From: Kiritimatiellia bacterium
GTDB lineage: Bacteria; Verrucomicrobiota; Kiritimatiellia; RFP12; UBA1067
DNA length: 64,000 nucleotides
Assembly (NCBI GenBank): GCA_034003585.1
Contig: JAVEYH010000004.1
Span: 16,488 to 80,487 of the forward strand
Reading direction: 5' to 3'
Below, in pieces: positions 36,026 through 42,940 of the stretch. The translations under genes and the position numbers were made by a program. The number at the start of each line of letters is the position of its first letter. Within the stretch, counting starts at the first letter, position 1. Under the pieces are notes generated by a model that saw only the letters and a list, made by a program, of their open reading frames with translations, ran no database searches and was not told the DNA's origin.

Positions 36026-36798
36026 ACGCCGCGTTTGCTGGCCTGGAAGAACTCGACCAGCGTCCGGATCTCCGGCAGATCCGTTACCTCATATTTGATC
36101 CGCTCCAGCGCCTGACTGCGGTTGAGGCCCTCACGGTAGAGCAGCTTGTACGCCTCTTTCAGCGCGGCACGCACCTCGGCCGGAAAGCCCCGGCGCTGCA
36201 ACCCCACGATGTTCGGGCCGATTACGCGCACCTCAGCGCCCACATTGTCCGTCACCATGAACGGCGGGCAGTCCTGGCGGATTTTGGTGGCGCCGCCGAT
36301 CATGGCGTGCGTGCCGATGCGGCAGAACTGATGAATCCCGGTCATCCCGGAGATGACCGCGAAATCTTCCACCGTCACCTCGCCGGCCAGCGTCGCGACA
36401 TTGGACATGATCACGTGATGCCCCACGACGCAGCCGTGCGCGATATGGCAGTAGGCCATGATCAGGCAGTGACTGCCGATCCGCGTCACCTCGCCCGGTT
36501 TGGTCCCGAGATGCACGGTCGAGAATTCACGCAACACCGTTCCGTCGCCCACCTCAACGTAGGTGACATCCCCCTCCTGGTACTTCAGATCCTGCGTTTT
36601 CATGCCGACGCAGGCGAAGGGGAAGATTTGGCAGCCCTTGCCCAGCGTGGTGTGCCCCACCACATGCGCGTGCGCCTGCAGCACCGTGCCGGCCCCGATC
36701 CGGACATCCGGCCCCACCATCGCATAGGGTCCGACCTCCACATCGCTGTCGAGTTCGGCCCGGGGGTCCACAATCGCTGTCGGGTGAATGTTCGCCAT
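36019..36798 (-). CDS. lpxA: Acyl-[ACP]--UDP-N-acetylglucosamine O-acyltransferase
   Basis: ATG 36798 with GGAGGAA SD. Hexapeptide-repeat left-handed beta-helix (MANIHPTAIVDP…IGAGTVLQAHAHVVGHTTLG…). C-terminal helical domain typical of LpxA. Confidence 0.9.
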   Translation of the reverse strand: MANIHPTAIVDPRAELDSDVEVGPYAMVGPDVRIGAGTVLQAHAHVVGHTTLGKGCQIFPFACVGMKTQDLKYQEGDVTYVEVGDGTVLREFSTVHLGTKPGEVTRIGSHCLIMAYCHIAHGCVVGHHVIMSNVATLAGEVTVEDFAVISGMTGIHQFCRIGTHAMIGGATKIRQDCPPFMVTDNVGAEVRVIGPNIVGLQRRGFPAEVRAALKEAYKLLYREGLNRSQALERIKYEVTDLPEIRTLVEFFQASKRGVH

Positions 36799-36824
36799 AC
36801 GTTCTTCCTCCGTTGCTTCGGATA

Positions 36825-37916
36825 CTACAGGTTTTTGGAAAGGAGCCAGGCCGCGAGAGCCAGACAGACGCCGACCGGCAGCCACAGCAGCGCGTACGGC
36901 TGCAGCGCCGGGTACTTGTCCAGCGACTGCAGCAGGATCACGCAAAGATAGTAGGCCATCGCCACAACCAGGCTGACCGCCATGCCGACGGTGGATTCCT
37001 TGCGCTGGGTGCGGATACCGAGCGGCACGCCGATCATGACGAAACACAGCGACGCGAACGCGTACACGTAGCGCATGTGGTATTCGGTGCGGTAGATGCT
37101 GAGCAGCCGGCGCATCGCCCCGCGCGACAGACCCCGGACGTTACCGCGCACCCCGCGGATTGCCCGCCGCAATTCGCCGAAATGGAAATCCTTCTCTTTG
37201 CGGACATAACCGCGCCGTTTCAGCGCTTCGGGGATCACGTGCCGGAACCGGTCCGCGGAGGCCACTCCGGGGCGGTTGAACTCGATCGGGTCGACCCGCA
37301 CCTTGTACATCTCCAGCACGATATCGGCCCCGTTGGTGGTGACCAGCGCCTTCTCCGCACGGATCTCGCGGGTGAGGCCCTCCTGACTGTGATCAAACAC
37401 GATGAGGTCCTGAATCCAGTTGCCCTTCTTGCGCGCGAACCAGAGGGTCATCCGGGGAAAGTCGGTGATGAAGCGGCCCGACTCCAACAGATCCAATCCC
37501 ACATCCACACTGATCAGCGAACGCAGGTTACGGCGCACCTCGTGGCTGCGCGGCACGATCTCATGGTTGATGTACAAACCGATCAGCGTGCAGAACACCC
37601 CCACCAGCAGAGGCCATTTCATAATGGCGAGCAGATTCACCCCGCAGGCCCGCATGGCCGAGATCTCACTGTCGGCCGAGAGGCGGCTGAACACCAGCAG
37701 CGCGCTGACCAGCAGCGCGAGCGGCAGGGTGAGCCGGAGGGTTTCGGGGAACCCCACAAGCAGGAAGAGCCCGACCGCGCGGGGCGGCAGGCCTTCGATC
37801 ATGAGCTGCGTGATCCGGACCAGCAAACCGATCGTCATCACAAACGACAGGATCAGCCAGGCCAGCACAAACGCGCCCAGAAAGGCCTGCAACACATATC
37901 GCTCCAGAATCTTCAT
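36825..37916 (-). CDS. LptF/LptG-family LPS export permease (YjgP/YjgQ)
   Basis: ATG 37916 (MKILERYVLQAFLGAFVLAWLILSFVMTIGLLV…). Six predicted TM helices plus a periplasmic beta-jellyroll-like insert. A TATAAT sequence lies 7 nt upstream of the ATG, suggesting a possible leaderless transcript. Confidence 0.85.
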   Translation of the reverse strand: MKILERYVLQAFLGAFVLAWLILSFVMTIGLLVRITQLMIEGLPPRAVGLFLLVGFPETLRLTLPLALLVSALLVFSRLSADSEISAMRACGVNLLAIMKWPLLVGVFCTLIGLYINHEIVPRSHEVRRNLRSLISVDVGLDLLESGRFITDFPRMTLWFARKKGNWIQDLIVFDHSQEGLTREIRAEKALVTTNGADIVLEMYKVRVDPIEFNRPGVASADRFRHVIPEALKRRGYVRKEKDFHFGELRRAIRGVRGNVRGLSRGAMRRLLSIYRTEYHMRYVYAFASLCFVMIGVPLGIRTQRKESTVGMAVSLVVAMAYYLCVILLQSLDKYPALQPYALLWLPVGVCLALAAWLLSKNL

Positions 37917-37938
37917 GCCCGCTATTATATAGCACAAA

Positions 37939-37977
37939 AGGCCGCAGAAGAAACGGCTGTTTCTTTGCGGCCTTCCG
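37939..37977 (-). terminator. Rho-independent terminator of OmpA-like gene A
   Basis: On the minus strand, GGCCGCAAAGAAAC-agcc-GTTTCTTCTGCGGCC followed by TTTTGTG. Immediately precedes the lptF/G start. Confidence 0.5.
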
Positions 37978-38007
37978 ATCGCATCGCCCCCGCGGACGGC
38001 GGAAGCG

Positions 38008-39279
38008 TTACGGGTTCACATACTTGACCTTGTCGGCGTTGGTGCCCGCGCCGCGGATGTAGATCTCCACGCGACGGTTCTCGGGATTCCCGTTGACCAG
38101 GTCGGGCTGGACCTTGGGCCGGCTGTAGCCGTACCCCACGGCGCTCAGGCGCGACGCGGTCACGCCCTTGCCCGCCATATAGGACTGCACCGCCTGGGCC
38201 CGGCGCTCGGAGAGATCCTGATTGTACTTCTCGCTCGAACGCGTCCGGCGGTCCGCATGGCCCTCGATCACCGCCGTGGCCTGCGGGTTACGCTGCAACA
38301 CGCGCACGACCTGATCGATGTCCTTGAAGTATTCGGGCTTGATCACCGTGGTGTCATAATCGAACTGGATGTAGACCTCGAACAGCATCAGGTCATCGGA
38401 GGGATCCAACGGGTTGGTCTTGTCCTCGATCACCTCGTGCCCGTCCGCCACGCCGCCCTTGTCGGTGTCGCGGTCCAGCGGGCTGGTCTTGTGGGTGAAC
38501 ACCTCGGCCCCGTCCTTGAGCCCGTCGAAATCGGTGTCCGGATTGAGCGGGTTGGTTTTGTAGACCTTGACCTCATCGCCGTCCGTCAGCCCGTCGCCGT
38601 CGGTGTCTTTGTTGAAGGGGTCGGTCCCGAGCTTCGCCTCCTCTTCGTCGGTCAGCCCGTCGCCGTCCGAATCCTTGGGCAGGGCCGCAACCGCCGCCGC
38701 GCCCTCGCTGACACGGCTGTCGCGGCTACCGCCGAAACGGTAAACCACCCCGGCATCCACCGTGTACTGCATCTCATGCCGCTTATCGACCGACATCAGT
38801 GCCCGGCTGTCAGCCCGGAGAGAGAAGTTGTCGGTCAGATGATACATGGCACCCAGGCCAATCCGCGGCCCCGTCAGAGTAGAGCGGTCCCCCTCTTCAA
38901 ACACATTGCGGTCCGCCATATACACGGCCCAACCTGCCGAAAGGAACGGGTCGAATCGGCTGTACCGGTCGAAATGATACAGCGCATCAACCCCCAACCC
39001 GTACATGCGCTGCTTTTTCTGCGTCCAGCGCTCGTTGTTGGTCATGTTGGGCGCGAAAGACGCCTCCGTCTCCACCGACCAGTGGTCGGTGAGATCGTAA
39101 CCGAGACGCAGGTTGAGATTCAACCCCTCGTCAATCGCCTGATTCCCCTCAGGGAAAATCATTCCGATCCCGGGATTGACATACCAGCGGGGCGCATCGA
39201 CCAGCTCATCGGCCTTCACCTGCGAACACAAGATCCCAGCGGCCGCAACCGCTGAAAGTATCAGTCTTGATGTGCTCAT
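38008..39279 (-). CDS. OmpA-family outer-membrane protein with N-terminal beta-barrel, thrombospondin-type-3 Ca-binding repeats and C-terminal OmpA peptidoglycan-binding domain (copy A)
   Basis: AAGGAGGAATCGG SD. Signal peptide MSTSRLILSAVAAAGILCSQVKA. TSP3 repeats DSDGDGLTDEEEAKLGTDPFNKDTDGDGLTDGDEV…NPDTDFDGLKDGAEV. OmpA domain …EGHADRRTRSSEKYNQDLSERRAQAV…. Confidence 0.85.
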   Translation of the reverse strand: MSTSRLILSAVAAAGILCSQVKADELVDAPRWYVNPGIGMIFPEGNQAIDEGLNLNLRLGYDLTDHWSVETEASFAPNMTNNERWTQKKQRMYGLGVDALYHFDRYSRFDPFLSAGWAVYMADRNVFEEGDRSTLTGPRIGLGAMYHLTDNFSLRADSRALMSVDKRHEMQYTVDAGVVYRFGGSRDSRVSEGAAAVAALPKDSDGDGLTDEEEAKLGTDPFNKDTDGDGLTDGDEVKVYKTNPLNPDTDFDGLKDGAEVFTHKTSPLDRDTDKGGVADGHEVIEDKTNPLDPSDDLMLFEVYIQFDYDTTVIKPEYFKDIDQVVRVLQRNPQATAVIEGHADRRTRSSEKYNQDLSERRAQAVQSYMAGKGVTASRLSAVGYGYSRPKVQPDLVNGNPENRRVEIYIRGAGTNADKVKYVNP

Positions 39280-39366
39280 CCGATTCCTCCTTATAGTCCA
39301 AAGTTGAAATGAGTTTACCGGAAGCGGGAGCGTGACGCAACAAGAATCGGATTACATGACATTCTT

Positions 39367-39429
39367 TTAAGATTGCGCCCATGCCGCGTCCACAACGGCC
39401 TGCACCACACATCGCTCCAGAATCTTCAT
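39367..39429 (-). pseudogene. Truncated, diverged 5' fragment of lptF/G carried along in the tandem duplication
   Basis: 20 codons. The first 6 aa are identical to the intact lptF/G N-terminus, then mismatches and a TAA stop. Confidence 0.6.
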
Positions 39430-40990
39430 GGGCGCTGTTATATAACAAAAAGGGCCGCAGAAGAAACGGCGGTTTCTCTGCGGCCTTCCGATCGCGACGT
39501 TCCCGCGTGCGGCGGAAGCGTTACGGGGTCACATACTTGACCTTGTCCGCGTTGGTGCCCGCGCCGCGGATGTAGATCTCCACACGGCGGTTCTCGGGGT
39601 TCCCGTTGACCAGATCGGGCTGGACCTTGGGACGGCTGTAGCCGTACCCCACCGCGCTCAGGCGCGACGGGGTCACGCCCTTGCCCGCCATGTAGGACTG
39701 CACCGCCTGGGCCCGGCGCTCGGAGAGATCCTGATTGTACTTCTCGCTCGAACGCGTCCGGCGGTCCGCATGGCCCTCGATCACCGCCGTGGCCTGCGGG
39801 TTGCGCTGCAGCACGCGCACGACCTGGTCGATGTCCTTGAAGTATTCGGGCTTGACCACCGTGGTGTCATAATCGAACTGGATGTAGACCTCGAACAGCA
39901 TCAGGTCGTCGGAGGGGTCCAGCGGGTTGGTCTTGTCCTCGATCACCTCGTGCCCGTCCGCCACGCCGCCCTTGTCGGTGTCGCGGTCCAGCGGGTTGGT
40001 CTTGTAGGTGAACACCTCGGCCCCGTCCTTGAGCCCGTCGAAATCGGTGTCCGGATTGAGCGGGTTGGTCTTGTAGACGTTGACCTCATCGCCATCCGTC
40101 AACCCGTCGCCGTCGGTGTCCTTGTTGAAGGGGTCGGTCCCCCGTTTCGCCTCCTCGTCGTCGGTCAGCCCGTCGCCGTCCGAGTCCTTGGGCAGGGCCG
40201 CCACCGCCGCGGCGCTCGCCGCCGCCGCACCCGCCGCGCCGCCGCCGAAGCGGTAAGCGACGCCGGCATCCGCCGTGTAGATGAATTCGCAGGTCTGATC
40301 CAGCGCCATGAAGGCCCGCGTATCCGCACGCAGCGACCAGCGGTCATTCAGGTGATACATGAGGCCCGCGCCCAGGCGCGGGCCGACCACGCTGTACTCG
40401 CTGCCTTCGCAGAACACATTGTCATTCGCGCGATAATAACCGAAACCGGCGGCCAGATAGGGGTCGAGCCGGTTATACCGGTCGAAGTGGTACAGCCCGT
40501 CCACAAACAGGCCGCGCACACTCTGTCCGCCGAGCCCGTCCTCCGAACCGGAGGAACCCACGCCGGGCCACCAGCATCCGTCTCTGCATCCTCCGTCCCA
40601 ACCGCCTCCCGCGCCGCCGTCATCCCGTCCGTCCCGCCCGTTGCTGGTGATGTTGGGCGCCCAGGAGACCCCGCCTTCAACCGACCAGTGCTCGGACAGA
40701 TCATACCCCAACCGCAACAGCAGGTTCAGACCCTCATCCACCGGCTGGTTGCCCTCGAAGAACATCATGCCGACACCCGGGCTCACATACCAGCGGGGCG
40801 CATCGGTCCACTCCTCGGCCTTCCCCTGTGAACACGCGATCCCAACGGCCGCAACCGTTGAAAGCATCCGTCTTGCTTTGCTCATCCGATTCCTCCTTCA
40901 TGTTCTAAGGTCATGGCTACTTTACCGGAATCGGAAGCGCGACGCAACAAGAACCGGATTACATGACATTTTTTTAAGATTGCGCCCATG
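39385..40990. repeat. Tandem duplication unit B (paralogous copy; contains a decayed lptF/G 5' fragment at 39367..39429 on the minus strand)
   Basis: Minus-strand fragment ATGAAGATTCTGGAGCGATGTGTG…TAA encodes MKILERCVVQAVVDAAWAQS*, against MKILERYVLQAFLGAFVLAW in the intact gene. The terminator hairpin copy is at 39447..39490. Confidence 0.7.
39521..40885 (-). CDS. OmpA-family outer-membrane protein with TSP3 repeats (copy B; carries an extra Gly/Asp-rich insertion)
   Basis: Signal peptide MSKARRMLSTVAAVGIACSQGKA. Insertion NITSNGRDGRDDGGAGGGWDGGCRDGCWWPGVGSSGSEDGLGG is absent from copy A. The TSP3 and OmpA domains are near-identical to copy A. Confidence 0.85.
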   Translation of the reverse strand: MSKARRMLSTVAAVGIACSQGKAEEWTDAPRWYVSPGVGMMFFEGNQPVDEGLNLLLRLGYDLSEHWSVEGGVSWAPNITSNGRDGRDDGGAGGGWDGGCRDGCWWPGVGSSGSEDGLGGQSVRGLFVDGLYHFDRYNRLDPYLAAGFGYYRANDNVFCEGSEYSVVGPRLGAGLMYHLNDRWSLRADTRAFMALDQTCEFIYTADAGVAYRFGGGAAGAAAASAAAVAALPKDSDGDGLTDDEEAKRGTDPFNKDTDGDGLTDGDEVNVYKTNPLNPDTDFDGLKDGAEVFTYKTNPLDRDTDKGGVADGHEVIEDKTNPLDPSDDLMLFEVYIQFDYDTTVVKPEYFKDIDQVVRVLQRNPQATAVIEGHADRRTRSSEKYNQDLSERRAQAVQSYMAGKGVTPSRLSAVGYGYSRPKVQPDLVNGNPENRRVEIYIRGAGTNADKVKYVTP

Positions 40991-41010
40991 CCGCGACGCA
41001 AACGGGATTC

Positions 41011-41055
41011 CCGGAAAAAAATACGGCCCGCCACGTTCCCCCGTGGCGGGCCCGC
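41011..41055 (-). terminator. Rho-independent terminator (perfect 12-bp stem + U7) ending the lnt operon
   Basis: + strand aaaaaaatac-GGCCCGCCACG-ttccc-CCGTGGCGGGCCC. On the minus strand the hairpin is followed by UAUUUUUUU. Confidence 0.6.
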
Positions 41056-41230
41056 ATCCTTGCGGACACAAGCCCCGCATGAGTCTGCGTGCTTCTGTAC
41101 GCACCCCGAATGTCCGAACCTGGCGTTCTCTAGCGCGGGAAAGGGCTGCTTTCCGGCGTCGGAACACTGGGCGAGCGTAGCGCATGCCCAGTTCGCGTTC
41201 TATTATGCAACCCTCATGCCAACCGGCGCG

Positions 41231-42940
41231 TCAGAAGTCCCAAACCCGTTCGGCGGGCTTTTTCGCAGACGCGAAGGCACAGACGGCCCGACCTCCGGCG
41301 CTCAGAACGGCCTGCCCGTCTCCCGTGGTCAGACGCAGGGGGCCGCACCCCCGGTGGCGCAGCACAGCAGCCGTCAACAGTGCCTTTTCCAACCCGTCCC
41401 CGCGCCGGTAGTTCCACACCTCATCGGGTTGCGCGAGCCGCGCGGCCCCGTCGTAGATGGAGTCCCCGGGCCAGGCGGCGAGCCGCGCGACCAGTTCGCT
41501 TTCCGACAGTCCTGCGGCACCCGTCAGGCTCACCGGGTTCCGCTCCAGCGCGGCCTTGACAAACGGGGCGTACGGCGTGCGGGTCAGGTCGCGCCAGACG
41601 TAAAAGGCCAGATCGGCGGCGGGGTTGACCTCCCGCAAAGCCTCCACCCGCGCAATCACCTCCCCGCGCGTCAGATCCACCGGCAGCAGAACCGGCGGCG
41701 GGCCGTTCTCAAACGTCACGCCCGCGGCATCCGGCAACCGCGGCGCCGTGTGGCAAAAACGCTTCAACTGCTCGACCATGTCGGCCGCGCTCATGCAGGC
41801 GTCGCCGATGGCGTCGCGCAGCGCCTGCAGGTCTTCGGGCCGGTCCAGATCGATGGCGCGCTCGCGCACAAACGCCTCGATGTCGTTCAGCACGATCTTA
41901 CACGGGCAGCACGAGGCCGCAAAGGTCTCCATCGGGATCATGGCCAGCAATTTATCGCGCGTGGCGTCCGTGACCTTGTACGGGCACTCCTGCTCAAACC
42001 GGAAGGCCTGCTCCAGCGCCAGATAGCGATTCACCCCGTGAACCGGCCAGCGCACCACGAAACACTGCCGGCACTGCGGATCCTGCCGCAGGAAATTACC
42101 CAGAATCTCCGGCGTGAGCGGAGTCTTCAGATACGCGCGCAACCCGGCGGCGAACCGCCCGTACGCTTCGGACGCGATCGTGGCGCGCGGGTAGAGCATG
42201 TGGATCCAGCCCGTGGAGTGCGAGACGATCGTCACCCGTTCGTTCTCCAGCGCCCGGCGCGCCTGGCCCGAAATCTGGGTGCCGTTGAACCACATCGCTT
42301 TGGTCACCAGCCGCCGGTTGTTGATGAGCACGCCGTCGTCCACCTCCACGAAATTCTGGGAGTGCAGGGGCGTGGCCATCAGAAACACCTTCTCCAGCGG
42401 CAGGCCCGCCACCACATACAGCGCCGCGGCGTAGAGCGCGGCCAGCGAGACACACTCGCCCGCACCGGTGGCGTACCCCTCACGGTACCGGAACGCGTCC
42501 ATGGCCTCGATCGTCTCGGTCTTCCAGTAGGGGATCACCTCCGAGGCGTATTTGTCCAGGCCGAAATGGGTGCGGATGTCGATGTCGAAGTAGTAGGTGT
42601 CGCCCTGATAGCCGAACAGCGCGTTGGACTGCGCGATCACCTCGGGCGCGAGGAACCCGGCGAACCGATCGAGCTCGCGGCGCTGATCGGTCAGCCCCCA
42701 CGTCTCCAAATCCAGATTGAACACGTAGTGGTCCATGATGTACTGCTTCAGGCGCAGCAGCCTGCGGTAGGGCTTCATCTTGCGGATCCCCTTGAACCAA
42801 GGATCCTCGCGCCACTGCCAGAGGCGCGGCGACATGATGTTCGCCAGCACCAGGCTGTACATCAGCTCCGGAAAAACGAAAATCTCCATGTCGGACAACG
42901 TGACGGCCGACGAATACCGCTCCAGTTCCTCCCGGGTCAT
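41231..42940 (-). CDS. Hypothetical protein co-transcribed with lnt (possible transglutaminase-like/papain-fold Cys-His-Asp hydrolase; tentative)
   Basis: ATG 42940 (MTREELERYSSAVTL…) overlaps the lnt stop (ATGA). Motif YATGAGECVSLAALYAAALYVVAG. No signal peptide. The track ORF start at 43279 lies in the Gly/Arg-rich antisense of lnt and is rejected. Confidence 0.5.
   Translation of the reverse strand: MTREELERYSSAVTLSDMEIFVFPELMYSLVLANIMSPRLWQWREDPWFKGIRKMKPYRRLLRLKQYIMDHYVFNLDLETWGLTDQRRELDRFAGFLAPEVIAQSNALFGYQGDTYYFDIDIRTHFGLDKYASEVIPYWKTETIEAMDAFRYREGYATGAGECVSLAALYAAALYVVAGLPLEKVFLMATPLHSQNFVEVDDGVLINNRRLVTKAMWFNGTQISGQARRALENERVTIVSHSTGWIHMLYPRATIASEAYGRFAAGLRAYLKTPLTPEILGNFLRQDPQCRQCFVVRWPVHGVNRYLALEQAFRFEQECPYKVTDATRDKLLAMIPMETFAASCCPCKIVLNDIEAFVRERAIDLDRPEDLQALRDAIGDACMSAADMVEQLKRFCHTAPRLPDAAGVTFENGPPPVLLPVDLTRGEVIARVEALREVNPAADLAFYVWRDLTRTPYAPFVKAALERNPVSLTGAAGLSESELVARLAAWPGDSIYDGAARLAQPDEVWNYRRGDGLEKALLTAAVLRHRGCGPLRLTTGDGQAVLSAGGRAVCAFASAKKPAERVWDF

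Follow-up and report, generated by a model that had tools for sequence, protein, structure and literature searches.

How two adjacent genes came to encode outer-membrane proteins with nearly the same periplasmic half and very different membrane barrels is the question raised by a locus in a Kiritimatiellia bacterium, which we examined within a 64,000-nucleotide stretch of its DNA (hereafter the window). On the minus strand, two genes of the OmpA family, A and B, lie head to tail, each within a unit that runs from an upstream region through an intact open reading frame and a hairpin with a U-tract to the start of lptF. The features of the locus are listed below by position in the window.

36825..37916, minus strand: intact lptF/lptG-family permease gene, 363 amino acids, start MKILERY (Pfam LptF_LptG, E=2.5e-65)
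37935..37977, minus strand: terminator hairpin of gene A, a 19-bp stem then UUUUGUGCU; fold -46.4 kcal/mol, z = -3.9
38008..39279, minus strand: gene A, 423 amino acids; signal peptide, A-type 8-stranded barrel, four TSP3 repeats and OmpA-like peptidoglycan-binding domain
39280..39384, minus strand: duplicated upstream region of gene A; 5' UTR, Shine-Dalgarno AAGGAGG and presumed promoter; 84% identical to that of gene B
39385..39429, minus strand: remnant of the start of lptF, 15-16 codons long and 87% identical to the intact gene
39453..39485, minus strand: terminator hairpin of gene B, followed by CUUUUUGUU; z = -2.8
39521..40885, minus strand: gene B, 454 amino acids, of the same architecture as gene A
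40886..40990, minus strand: native upstream region of gene B, by alignment the template of the duplicated upstream region
41025..41052, minus strand: terminator of the upstream 569-residue gene, in the terminator scan an 11-bp stem with 10 GC pairs, then a T-run; also folded as RNA

A sequence-only reading of this DNA had described a perfect tandem duplication with unit A at 37872..39384 and unit B at 39385..40990. The head-to-tail arrangement at these coordinates is confirmed as real: a repeat search paired 37872-38171 with 39385-39684 (91% identity, spacing 1513) and 39314-39398 with 40921-41005 (89% identity, spacing 1607), a MAFFT alignment showed the two units to be collinear over their full length, and a 1.5-kb repeat at such identity is far beyond what chance can account for. 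The duplication is not perfect in sequence, however, as identity ranges from 63% in the barrel to 96% in the OmpA domain. Units A and B abut at ~39385 without a spacer, and homology of the native upstream side to unit A stops at ~40990-41005; the terminator of the 569-residue gene, beyond this point, delimits the duplicated unit.

Alignment, a terminator scan and RNA folding agreed with the sequence-only reading that both units contain the upstream region and the GC-rich, U-tract-bearing hairpin. Each gene is preceded by ~105 nt of upstream sequence with a strong Shine-Dalgarno element, reading AAGGAGGAATCGG-ATG. These regions are presumed to act as promoters; a scan for the sigma-70 consensus returned no match upstream of gene A or B and two weak intragenic matches. 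An Rfam scan of 37700-41300 at E<=1 found no RNA family, and the conserved upstream block is therefore no known riboswitch or leader.

The duplicated unit also carried along the beginning of the neighbouring lptF gene, as had been proposed, although the copied piece amounts to the first 45-47 nt (15-16 codons) and not to 17 codons. This relic lies between genes A and B and differs from the real lptF by 6 substitutions; as the earlier reading had stated, it reads through as a 20-codon pseudo-ORF, MKILERCVVQAVVDAAWAQS followed by a stop, at 39429..39367. The bases AAGATTCTGGAG and GCAGGCC of the relic are common only to the window's own lptF and that of the relative L006, which argues that the relic stems from the organism's own clade. 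The junction coincides with the 3' end of the relic, where microhomology around a CGCG core blurs the crossover within ~39385-39400: the joint passes from lptF codon ~15-16 through CGCG(G) into the upstream region, with the parental sequences at 37872 and 40990. The 32-nt junction sequence had no exact match in a collection of metagenome contigs, from which the window's own contig is missing too. Folded as RNA, the junction region is on a par with shuffled sequences (z = +0.4), and a 9-nt inverted repeat around the relic is probably due to chance.

Both open reading frames are intact and encode OMP_b-brl, TSP3_bac and OmpA domains according to Pfam. The OmpA-like domain PF00691 scores 68.6 bits in A and 67.7 bits in B (gathering threshold 27.2), and the barrel domain PF13505 scores 80.9 and 61.0 bits, with A also matching OprF and OmpA_membrane. 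An AlphaFold model of B shows exactly 8 strands in residues 32-213, with pLDDT mostly >85, and an N-terminal hydrophobic helix (residues 2-19) precedes an AxA-type site (KA-D/E) that is legible in the sequence; by the C-terminal domain, and by the signal peptide with 8-stranded barrel, both proteins belong to the OmpA family. We rejected a reading of the signal peptides (GILC/GIAC) as lipoprotein signals, as the -1/-3 positions misfit a lipobox, other family members lack the cysteine, and an AxA site for signal peptidase I lies ahead of D/E-E. The motif GHADRR...YNQDLSERRAQAV is invariant across the family alignment and, judging from the domain families, the OmpA-like domains are predicted to bind peptidoglycan (DAP) non-covalently through conserved Asp and Arg residues. 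Between barrel and anchor, both proteins carry TSP3 repeats (TSP3_bac, PF18884, E=1.6e-20 in A and 8.5e-22 in B), arranged as four units with a period of 66-69 nt and the motifs KDSDGDGLTD, KDTDGDGLTD, PDTDFDGLKD and RDTDKGGVAD, which are of a predicted Ca-binding type.

The barrels themselves are of two types. The loops of barrel A are short and free of cysteines; in barrel B, loop 2 is long and Gly/Asp-rich, and loops 2-4 contain cysteines. Together with the recombinant tracts discussed below, the distinctive segments are as follows.

38446..38607, minus strand: B-type tract inside gene A (amino acids ~225-278, TSP3 repeats 2-3), a putative gene-conversion footprint from copy B
39959..40783, minus strand: B-type segment of gene B (amino acids ~35-309), nearest to L005, L011, L015 and L097, which are more distant Kiritimatiellia (77-84%)
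40526..40648, minus strand: Gly/Asp/Cys-rich segment of B, predicted extracellular loop L2 (amino acids 80-120), between strands 3 and 4

The L2 segment of B is 31 residues longer than that of A, and residues 84-116 of this loop are disordered in the AlphaFold model (pLDDT < 50). Copy B had been thought to have gained this segment as an insertion after the duplication; on the contrary, every B-type orthologue has a Gly/Asp-rich loop of variable length at the same site, indicating that the loop is ancestral to B-type barrels.

In related genomes, the single-copy state is the rule. About 45 related loci have one gene in the conserved synteny lnt-U569-ompA-lptF-lpxA-exo, with lptF orthologues (363 amino acids) directly downstream of ompA in all of them. 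Among these loci are those of the closest relatives, L006, L113 and L087, with one gene between U569 and lptF and flanking proteins 83-91% identical to those of the window. A separate tandem pair occurs in L088; its junctions differ, it contains no lptF relic and both of its barrels are B-type, which marks it as an independent event. The novel joint in the window and the single gene in relatives are what a tandem segmental duplication by illegitimate, microhomology-based recombination leaves behind.

Comparison of the two copies along their length revealed a mosaic. Identity between A and B is 84-87% in the non-coding flanks and 95-96% across the TSP3 repeats and OmpA domain (C-terminal half: dS 0.15), against 63% in the barrel, where dS is about 1.5 and synonymous sites are saturated (pS 0.65). 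Outside the barrel, neutral divergence between the copies is uniform and low, lying below the species dS to L006 (0.33-0.38); in the C-terminal half, the value of 0.15 between A and B compares with 0.43 and 0.33 to L006, and the upstream region, intergenic region and lptF relic diverge by 13-16%. Barrel A is 89% identical to that of L006 at the nucleotide level, with a dS of 0.32 that equals the species baseline; gene A is vertically orthologous to the only ompA copy of L006. Gene B, by comparison, combines an own-clade signal peptide, a foreign B-type barrel extending through TSP3 repeat 3 and an own-clade OmpA domain. L006 alone aligns with the upstream region, signal peptide, lptF relic and terminator, which argues for an own-clade origin of the duplicated unit.

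The phylogenetic affinities of the barrels point the same way. In neighbour-joining trees built on short alignments, the species clade of the window, L006 and L005 received 100% bootstrap support, as did a clade of A-type barrels (A, L006, L001, L004 and L008), while barrel B grouped with L005, L011 and L015 at 95%; barrel type is thus discordant with the species tree. Among informative sites, barrel A sides with L006 at 147 of 164 (17 for L005) and barrel B with L005 (125 against 28 for L006). Barrel B and its L005 counterpart are separated by a dS of 1.13, with 1.0-1.2 between the two species, and a check for recent horizontal transfer of A-type barrels between the window's clade and the L001 group gave pS values of 0.6-0.75, saturated in barrel and flanks alike. 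Given the saturated barrel dS, the grouping in the trees and the loop shared by B-type orthologues, the comparisons support two old barrel lineages that would have been brought together by recombination. A close donor of barrel B was absent from our genome and metagenome scans, in which the best matches reached 81-84% at the protein level.

The periplasmic parts had been read as kept alike by ongoing conversion or by selection, and the affinities along the genes bear conversion out. At amino acids 225-278 both copies side with L005 (33:10 and 30:13), and at amino acids 346-423 both side with L006 (28:7 and 31:5). The tract at amino acids ~225-278 of A is 70-78% identical to L006, 85-95% to L005 and 93-98% to B, so TSP3 repeats 2-3 of A are B-type, unlike those of its orthologue, which indicates conversion. 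The paralogues are closer to each other than to the orthologue, with an affinity that switches along the gene, as in concerted evolution. This tract has a dS of about 0.17 to B, like the rest of the unit, which argues against a recent conversion, since that would have left less divergence; the direction and number of conversion events are suggested by these patterns. With dN/dS at 0.10 in the C-terminal half and ~0.09 between barrel B and the L005 barrel, both reading frames appear to be under purifying selection.

We consider it probable that the pair arose by a lineage-specific, microhomology-mediated duplication, followed by recombinational exchange of a barrel and concerted evolution. Once the lineage had diverged from its nearest sampled relative, illegitimate recombination at a short microhomology around CGCG would have set two copies of a ~1.5-kb unit, reaching from ~105 nt upstream of ompA to lptF codon 15-16, head to tail. 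The promoter-proximal copy B would then have acquired an anciently diverged barrel together with TSP3 repeats 1-3 by homologous recombination, with the conserved 5' (DAPRWYV) and 3' (TSP3/OmpA) stretches serving as arms. Gene conversion between the neighbours may next have introduced the B-type TSP3 tract to copy A, and would maintain the ~96% identity of the periplasmic halves. This order and number of recombination events is tentative.

Other histories were weighed against this one. That the pair is an assembly artefact, with two strain variants of one locus concatenated, is conceivable for a metagenome assembly, but a second assembly, L086, made from another JGI sample, matches 36057..39799 of the window at 99.97% identity, and its contig covers the C-terminus of B, the relic, the junction, gene A and lptF. 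An independent assembly spanning the junction means that the junction is not an assembly artefact, a possibility that the earlier reading had wanted checked. L086 does end inside the repeat (39799), as assemblies often do; nevertheless, the joined sequences have no more than ~4-5 nt in common, less than a k-mer graph error would need, and the 6 substitutions in the relic and the 13-16% flank differences are those of evolved sequence and not of a duplicated read path, making this explanation extremely improbable. The explanation favoured by the sequence-only reading, a simple recent duplication with rapid divergence of the barrels in situ and a gain of the Gly/Asp-rich insertion by copy B, fits the similar, collinear flanks and C-terminal halves, and diversifying selection is common on surface loops. 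Protein-level selection cannot, however, yield a saturated barrel dS of about 1.5 beside 0.15 in adjacent sequence, barrel B is 77-80% identical in nucleotides to the barrels of other species and only 63% to A, and the loop is no novelty of copy B. We regard such divergence in situ as very improbable and, on these comparisons, as already refuted.

An ancient tandem pair, present in the clade ancestor or earlier, lost elsewhere and homogenised outside the barrel by repeated conversion, would explain the age of both barrel types and their presence at one locus across different lineages, and why the dS between barrel B and L005 equals that between the species, as expected for vertical descent of B. 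Inter-copy recombination would easily delete such a pair to either single-copy state, conversion is demonstrably active and L088 offers a second pair. Yet this history requires many independent losses, with about 45 loci single-copy and the closest relative among them, and two conversion tracts flanking the barrel that coincidentally have the same ~0.15 divergence, including the non-functional relic and non-coding DNA; the L088 pair, moreover, is an independent event. We judge it unlikely. Import of a whole ompA unit with a B-type barrel from a closely related strain, with insertion next to the gene already present through homology-facilitated illegitimate recombination (a homologous crossover on the upstream side and an illegitimate join where lptF and the upstream region share microhomology), would account in a single step for the uniform non-barrel divergence and the foreign barrel. 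The own-clade bases of the relic would make the donor a near relative, and exchange among lineages does occur, as the discordance of barrel types and species tree attests. Against this, genome and metagenome scans contained no own-clade genome with a B-type barrel, a later conversion is still required for the B-type TSP3 tract in A, and the present sequence would look alike under duplication with barrel replacement; import of the whole unit is quite unlikely.

Beyond the duplication followed by barrel exchange that we prefer, the Kiritimatiellia ompA locus might, more tentatively, be a cassette-exchange site at which whole surface barrels are swapped between distant lineages through the 5' and TSP3/OmpA arms. 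Tandem pairs such as A/B and that of L088 would then be intermediates or stable 'two-coat' states, with phage or predator pressure on the loops as a possible driver. The discordant phylogenies of barrel and flanks, the mosaicism of the genes and the fact that tandem duplication has recurred would fit this idea, which we hold to be doubtful.

Proteins A and B resemble E. coli OmpA, P. aeruginosa OprF and A. baumannii OmpA/Omp38 in joining an 8-stranded barrel to an OmpA-like domain, and their C-terminal domain matches PDB chains of OprF (5u1h, E=5e-16), Pal (4g4v and others) and Omp38 (3td3), with E from 1e-16 to 1e-10. Unlike the OmpA/OprF proteins, they have four TSP3 repeats in place of a short Pro-rich hinge, and their barrels are only distantly related in sequence to those of enterobacterial OmpA. 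Residues 234-438 of PDB 5wtl, an 'OmpA family protein', match their TSP3_bac and OmpA-like module, and the same C-terminal module occurs in OmpA-TSP3 proteins of Bacteroidota, Ignavibacteriota and Myxococcota, among many phyla in the genome scan; myxobacterial TraB (Myxococcus) is described as an OmpA protein with thrombospondin type 3 repeats. In A and B, by contrast with these other OmpA-TSP3 proteins, the module forms one protein with an integral 8-stranded barrel, encoded in a Kiritimatiellia-specific envelope-biogenesis cluster, lnt-U569-ompA-lptF-lpxA. More than one ompA-family gene per genome is likewise found in Aeromonas, whose OmpAI and OmpAII are distinct major outer-membrane proteins. 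Their genes are adjacent in A. salmonicida. They differ from A and B in belonging to another phylum and in lacking the TSP3 linker.

Paralogous and mosaic OmpA and porin genes are already well known, and the A/B pair is ordinary surface-protein gene evolution. Diversification of OmpA and OmpF independent of species phylogeny is described for Yersinia ruckeri (PMC7876001), PorB2/3 hybrids for the recombining surface-protein genes of Neisseria (PMC2570943) and OmpA loops as receptors of phage Gp38 (PMC12032242). Such mosaic porin and OmpA genes share with A and B a variable barrel or loops next to a conserved periplasmic part, discordance with the species tree and mosaic tracts; those mosaic porins are alternative alleles, whereas here both barrel types occur in one genome as a tandem pair.

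For annotation, genes A and B should not be merged as an assembly repeat, the 20-codon open reading frame is a relic of lptF and no separate gene, and the 'insertion' of B is a lineage trait. As both genes come with an upstream region, a ribosome-binding site and a terminator of their own and an intact reading frame under purifying selection, the cell most likely makes two tethers from outer membrane to peptidoglycan, with near-identical linkers and anchors and different surface barrels; the alternative surfaces may plausibly matter for recognition by phages or predators. The locus provides a clean, dated case of a major envelope protein diversifying in a barely studied, uncultured phylum, with a junction that still displays the microhomology and the relic of the neighbouring lptF, and in which conversion would keep the anchor unchanged as lineages exchange the exposed barrel.

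Repeat search and global alignment agree on two collinear units that abut with no spacer between them, and the tandem pair proposed by the sequence-only reading is thus borne out. Each unit holds one of two neighbouring OmpA-family genes, arranged head to tail on the minus strand, and both products match the Pfam families PF13505 (outer-membrane beta-barrel), PF18884 (bacterial TSP3 repeats) and PF00691 (OmpA-like). The permease gene downstream of gene A is followed by lpxA; upstream of gene B lie U569 and then lnt.

Features of the locus (window positions)
37872..39384, unit A
39385..40990, unit B
38008..39279, minus strand, gene A, intact ORF of 423 aa
39521..40885, minus strand, gene B, intact ORF of 454 aa
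37916, true start of the lptF/lptG-family permease gene downstream of gene A (363 aa, same length in all orthologues)
41231-42940, minus strand, U569, conserved 569-aa protein with no Pfam match

The mechanical ORF of U569 is 682 aa from a GTG, while its homologues begin at the 569-aa position; nearly every related Kiritimatiellia locus has this gene between lnt and ompA, at 64-88% identity.

In gene direction, each unit comprises an upstream region of ~105 nt with AAGGAGGAATCGG-ATG at its end, the ORF itself, a GC-rich hairpin with a U-run after it (fold z-scores -3.9 and -2.8) and the first 45-47 nt of lptF. The copied piece in unit B, the lptF relic, measures 15-16 codons, one or two short of the 17 initially read, and continues into the upstream region of gene A, giving a 20-codon ORF (MKILERCVVQAVVDAAWAQS*, 39429..39367). 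Because the parental sequences have only a CGCG core in common at the joint, within a loosely similar patch of ~14 nt, it is a microhomology junction; the crossover point within 39385-39400 is no longer legible.

An inverted repeat flanks the relic (39362-39383 and 39427-39448, core GCGCCCATG / CATGGGCGC), and the real lptF start carries GCGGGCATG in place of the core; since RNA folding of this region was not better than that of shuffled sequence, the repeat is probably due to chance. The motif TATATAAT (within 37917-37945) lies 7-9 nt 5' of the lptF ATG, right after the ompA terminator, and its duplicated counterpart, TATATAAC, at about 39435-39445; the two could point to an lptF transcript that is nearly leaderless and to a relic promoter directed into gene A. 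A consensus promoter scan made no call at either motif site.

A duplicated read path in the assembly was considered and ruled out, because 6 of the 46 relic positions depart from the real lptF and the units differ by 13-16% in their non-coding flanks, all evolved sequence, and because the junction is spanned by L086, a contig from a separate JGI sample (3300010346). This contig is 99.97% identical to window positions 36057..39799 and covers the C-terminal part of B, the relic, the junction, gene A, lptF and lpxA.

The duplication, previously called perfect, is far from uniform, with A-B nucleotide identity lowest in the barrel.

Identity between the two copies by segment
Upstream region, 84% nt
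Signal peptide, 85% nt (10 non-synonymous changes, 1 synonymous)
Barrel, 63% nt and 61% aa (pS 0.65; dS about 1.5, saturated)
TSP3, 95% nt
OmpA domain, 96% nt
Intergenic region with terminator, 85% nt
lptF relic, 87% nt

Neutral divergence between A and B is ~0.13-0.17 outside the barrel (dS 0.15 and dN/dS 0.10 in the C-terminal half) and tenfold higher within it. As selection at the protein level could not raise synonymous divergence so far, the barrel segments have a common ancestor much older than that of the rest of the unit. The signal peptides (39208-39279 vs 40814-40885) give a dN/dS of about 3.7, from small numbers over 24 codons.

OmpA-TSP3 proteins are abundant among Kiritimatiellia metagenome bins. 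Across the loci compared (5 fetched by protein identity, ~30 metagenome contigs and ~17 species representatives from GTDB), genes keep the order lnt-U569-ompA-lptF-lpxA-exonuclease with one ompA-family gene per locus, apart from a single further pair described below. The closest relative, L006 (also seen as L113 and L087), has flanking proteins 83-91% identical to those of the window, a dS of 0.33-0.38 for lptF, U569 and the exonuclease, and a single ompA-family gene with a barrel of the A-type lineage; the tandem pair is therefore a derived arrangement, and a rare one.

Barrel A matches that of L006 at 89% identity, with a dS of 0.32 that equals the species baseline; barrel B matches those of the related loci L005, L011 and L015, which belong with it to the B-type lineage, at 77-80%, and that of L006 at 62%. 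The upstream region, signal peptide, terminator and relic of gene B are alignable only with A and L006, and match all other lineages at ~35-50%, effectively unalignable; AAGATTCTGGAG and GCAGGCC in the relic are common only to the lptF of the window genome and L006.

Informative sites (positions differing between L006 and L005) matching L006:L005, by segment in aa of A
Barrel (35-190), A 147:17, B 28:125
TSP3 repeats 2-3 (225-278), A 10:33, B 13:30
aa 279-318, A 11:3, B 10:4
aa 346-423, A 28:7, B 31:5

Gene B thus appears to be own-clade at its two ends, with a B-type stretch between ~codon 35 and ~codon 309, and gene A to be own-clade throughout but for TSP3 repeats 2-3, where it carries a B-type tract. 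No such tract is present in the A-type orthologues (L006/P0002, P0004, P0007), and its presence in A is direct evidence of conversion between neighbours. In neighbour-joining trees with bootstrap, the flanking genes unite the window, L006 and L005 (100%), whereas the barrels place A beside L006 and a more distant group of L001, L004 and L008 (100%) and B with L005, L011 and L015 (95%), so that barrel type is discordant with the species tree. The TSP3 region of L006/L087 resembles that of the distant L001 group at the protein level (FKADTDGDGLTD..YKTDPLNPDTDFDGLSDGDEVKK), and an A-type 'cassette' of barrel and TSP3 repeats seems to be distributed discordantly with the flanking-gene tree.

As the most likely history, we infer that illegitimate recombination would have duplicated a unit that began in the promoter region and ended at lptF codon 15-16, in tandem and after the L006 split. 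Homologous recombination with DNA from a different Kiritimatiellia lineage would then have given the upstream copy a B-type barrel and TSP3 repeats, with crossovers in the conserved DAPRWYV stretch and the TSP3/OmpA region, and conversion between copies would have moved the B-type TSP3 tract to A and kept the periplasmic halves similar. Import of the whole unit from a near relative already carrying the B-type barrel is, in our estimate, unlikely. An older tandem pair lost from most lineages would fit the dS of 1.13 between the barrels of B and L005, which equals that between the two species (1.0-1.2), yet it is unlikely, as it needs many losses and both flanks, non-functional relic included, show uniform low divergence. 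Both copies are under purifying selection, with a dN/dS of about 0.09 for barrel B against L005.

The only other tandem pair, OmpA-TSP3 genes of 462 and 445 aa, occupies 5286-8338 of L088 (ENA ERZ21878245 contig_89), a Kiritimatiellia contig of low GC, immediately upstream of lptF. Its junctions are not those of the window pair: homology there runs from ~90 nt upstream of the ATG to the stop codon, an lptF relic is absent and both barrels are B-like, and the duplication is independent of the window pair. Identity between the copies follows a gradient as in the window pair, from 99% over the 3' half to ~80% over the 5' barrel, and loop 2 again contains an indel. Dispersed paralogues occur too, since the MAG nzgw607 (L010, L016) carries, besides its syntenic copy, one more gene of the family on a different contig and away from the lnt-lptF synteny.

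The Gly/Asp-rich segment that the sequence-only reading took for a gain by copy B occurs, at variable length and often with cysteines, in all B-type orthologues and so does not postdate the duplication; A-type barrels have a short ERWTQKK at this site. The loop is an ancestral feature of one barrel lineage. An AlphaFold model of B (mean pLDDT 82.8) has 8 strands (residues 32-43, 52-62, 67-79, 121-133, 140-153, 165-178, 183-192 and 202-213), with residues 80-120 disordered between strands 3 and 4; given a periplasmic C-terminal domain, the even strand number and the established OmpA topology, these residues probably form extracellular loop L2. A and B share 66% identity over the strands and 45% over those parts of the loops that can be aligned. 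B-type barrels have conserved cysteines in the predicted loops L3 (VFCEG) and L4 (TCEF) that A-type barrels lack, which suggests that only one barrel lineage has surface loops stapled by disulfides. The cysteines of B are residues 100, 104, 159 and 199, two of them in the long L2 besides those in L3 and L4; A-type barrels have none.

Both products share the invariant motif GHADRR...NQDLSERRAQAV and most likely act as OmpA-type tethers, with an outer-membrane barrel, a Ca-binding TSP3 linker and a peptidoglycan-binding domain. An upstream block, a Shine-Dalgarno site and a terminator accompany each gene separately, which makes independent transcription likely; a consensus promoter scan detected none upstream of either gene. 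The pair would thereby present a single periplasmic anchor design with two alternative surface faces. Escape from phages or other surface-recognising agents is a plausible role, by analogy with accounts of OmpA loops as phage receptors (PMC12032242) and of OmpA diversification independent of phylogeny (PMC7876001).

When defining features were tested, the A and B proteins showed those of the OmpA family and of bacterial TSP3 repeats, and the locus those of microhomology-mediated tandem duplication and of paralogue conversion. Other phyla offer well-known examples of ompA genes in tandem or in several copies, and of mosaic genes for outer-membrane proteins. The finding would be no surprise to a specialist; it provides a well-resolved pair in an under-studied phylum, with a pattern that recurs in L088.
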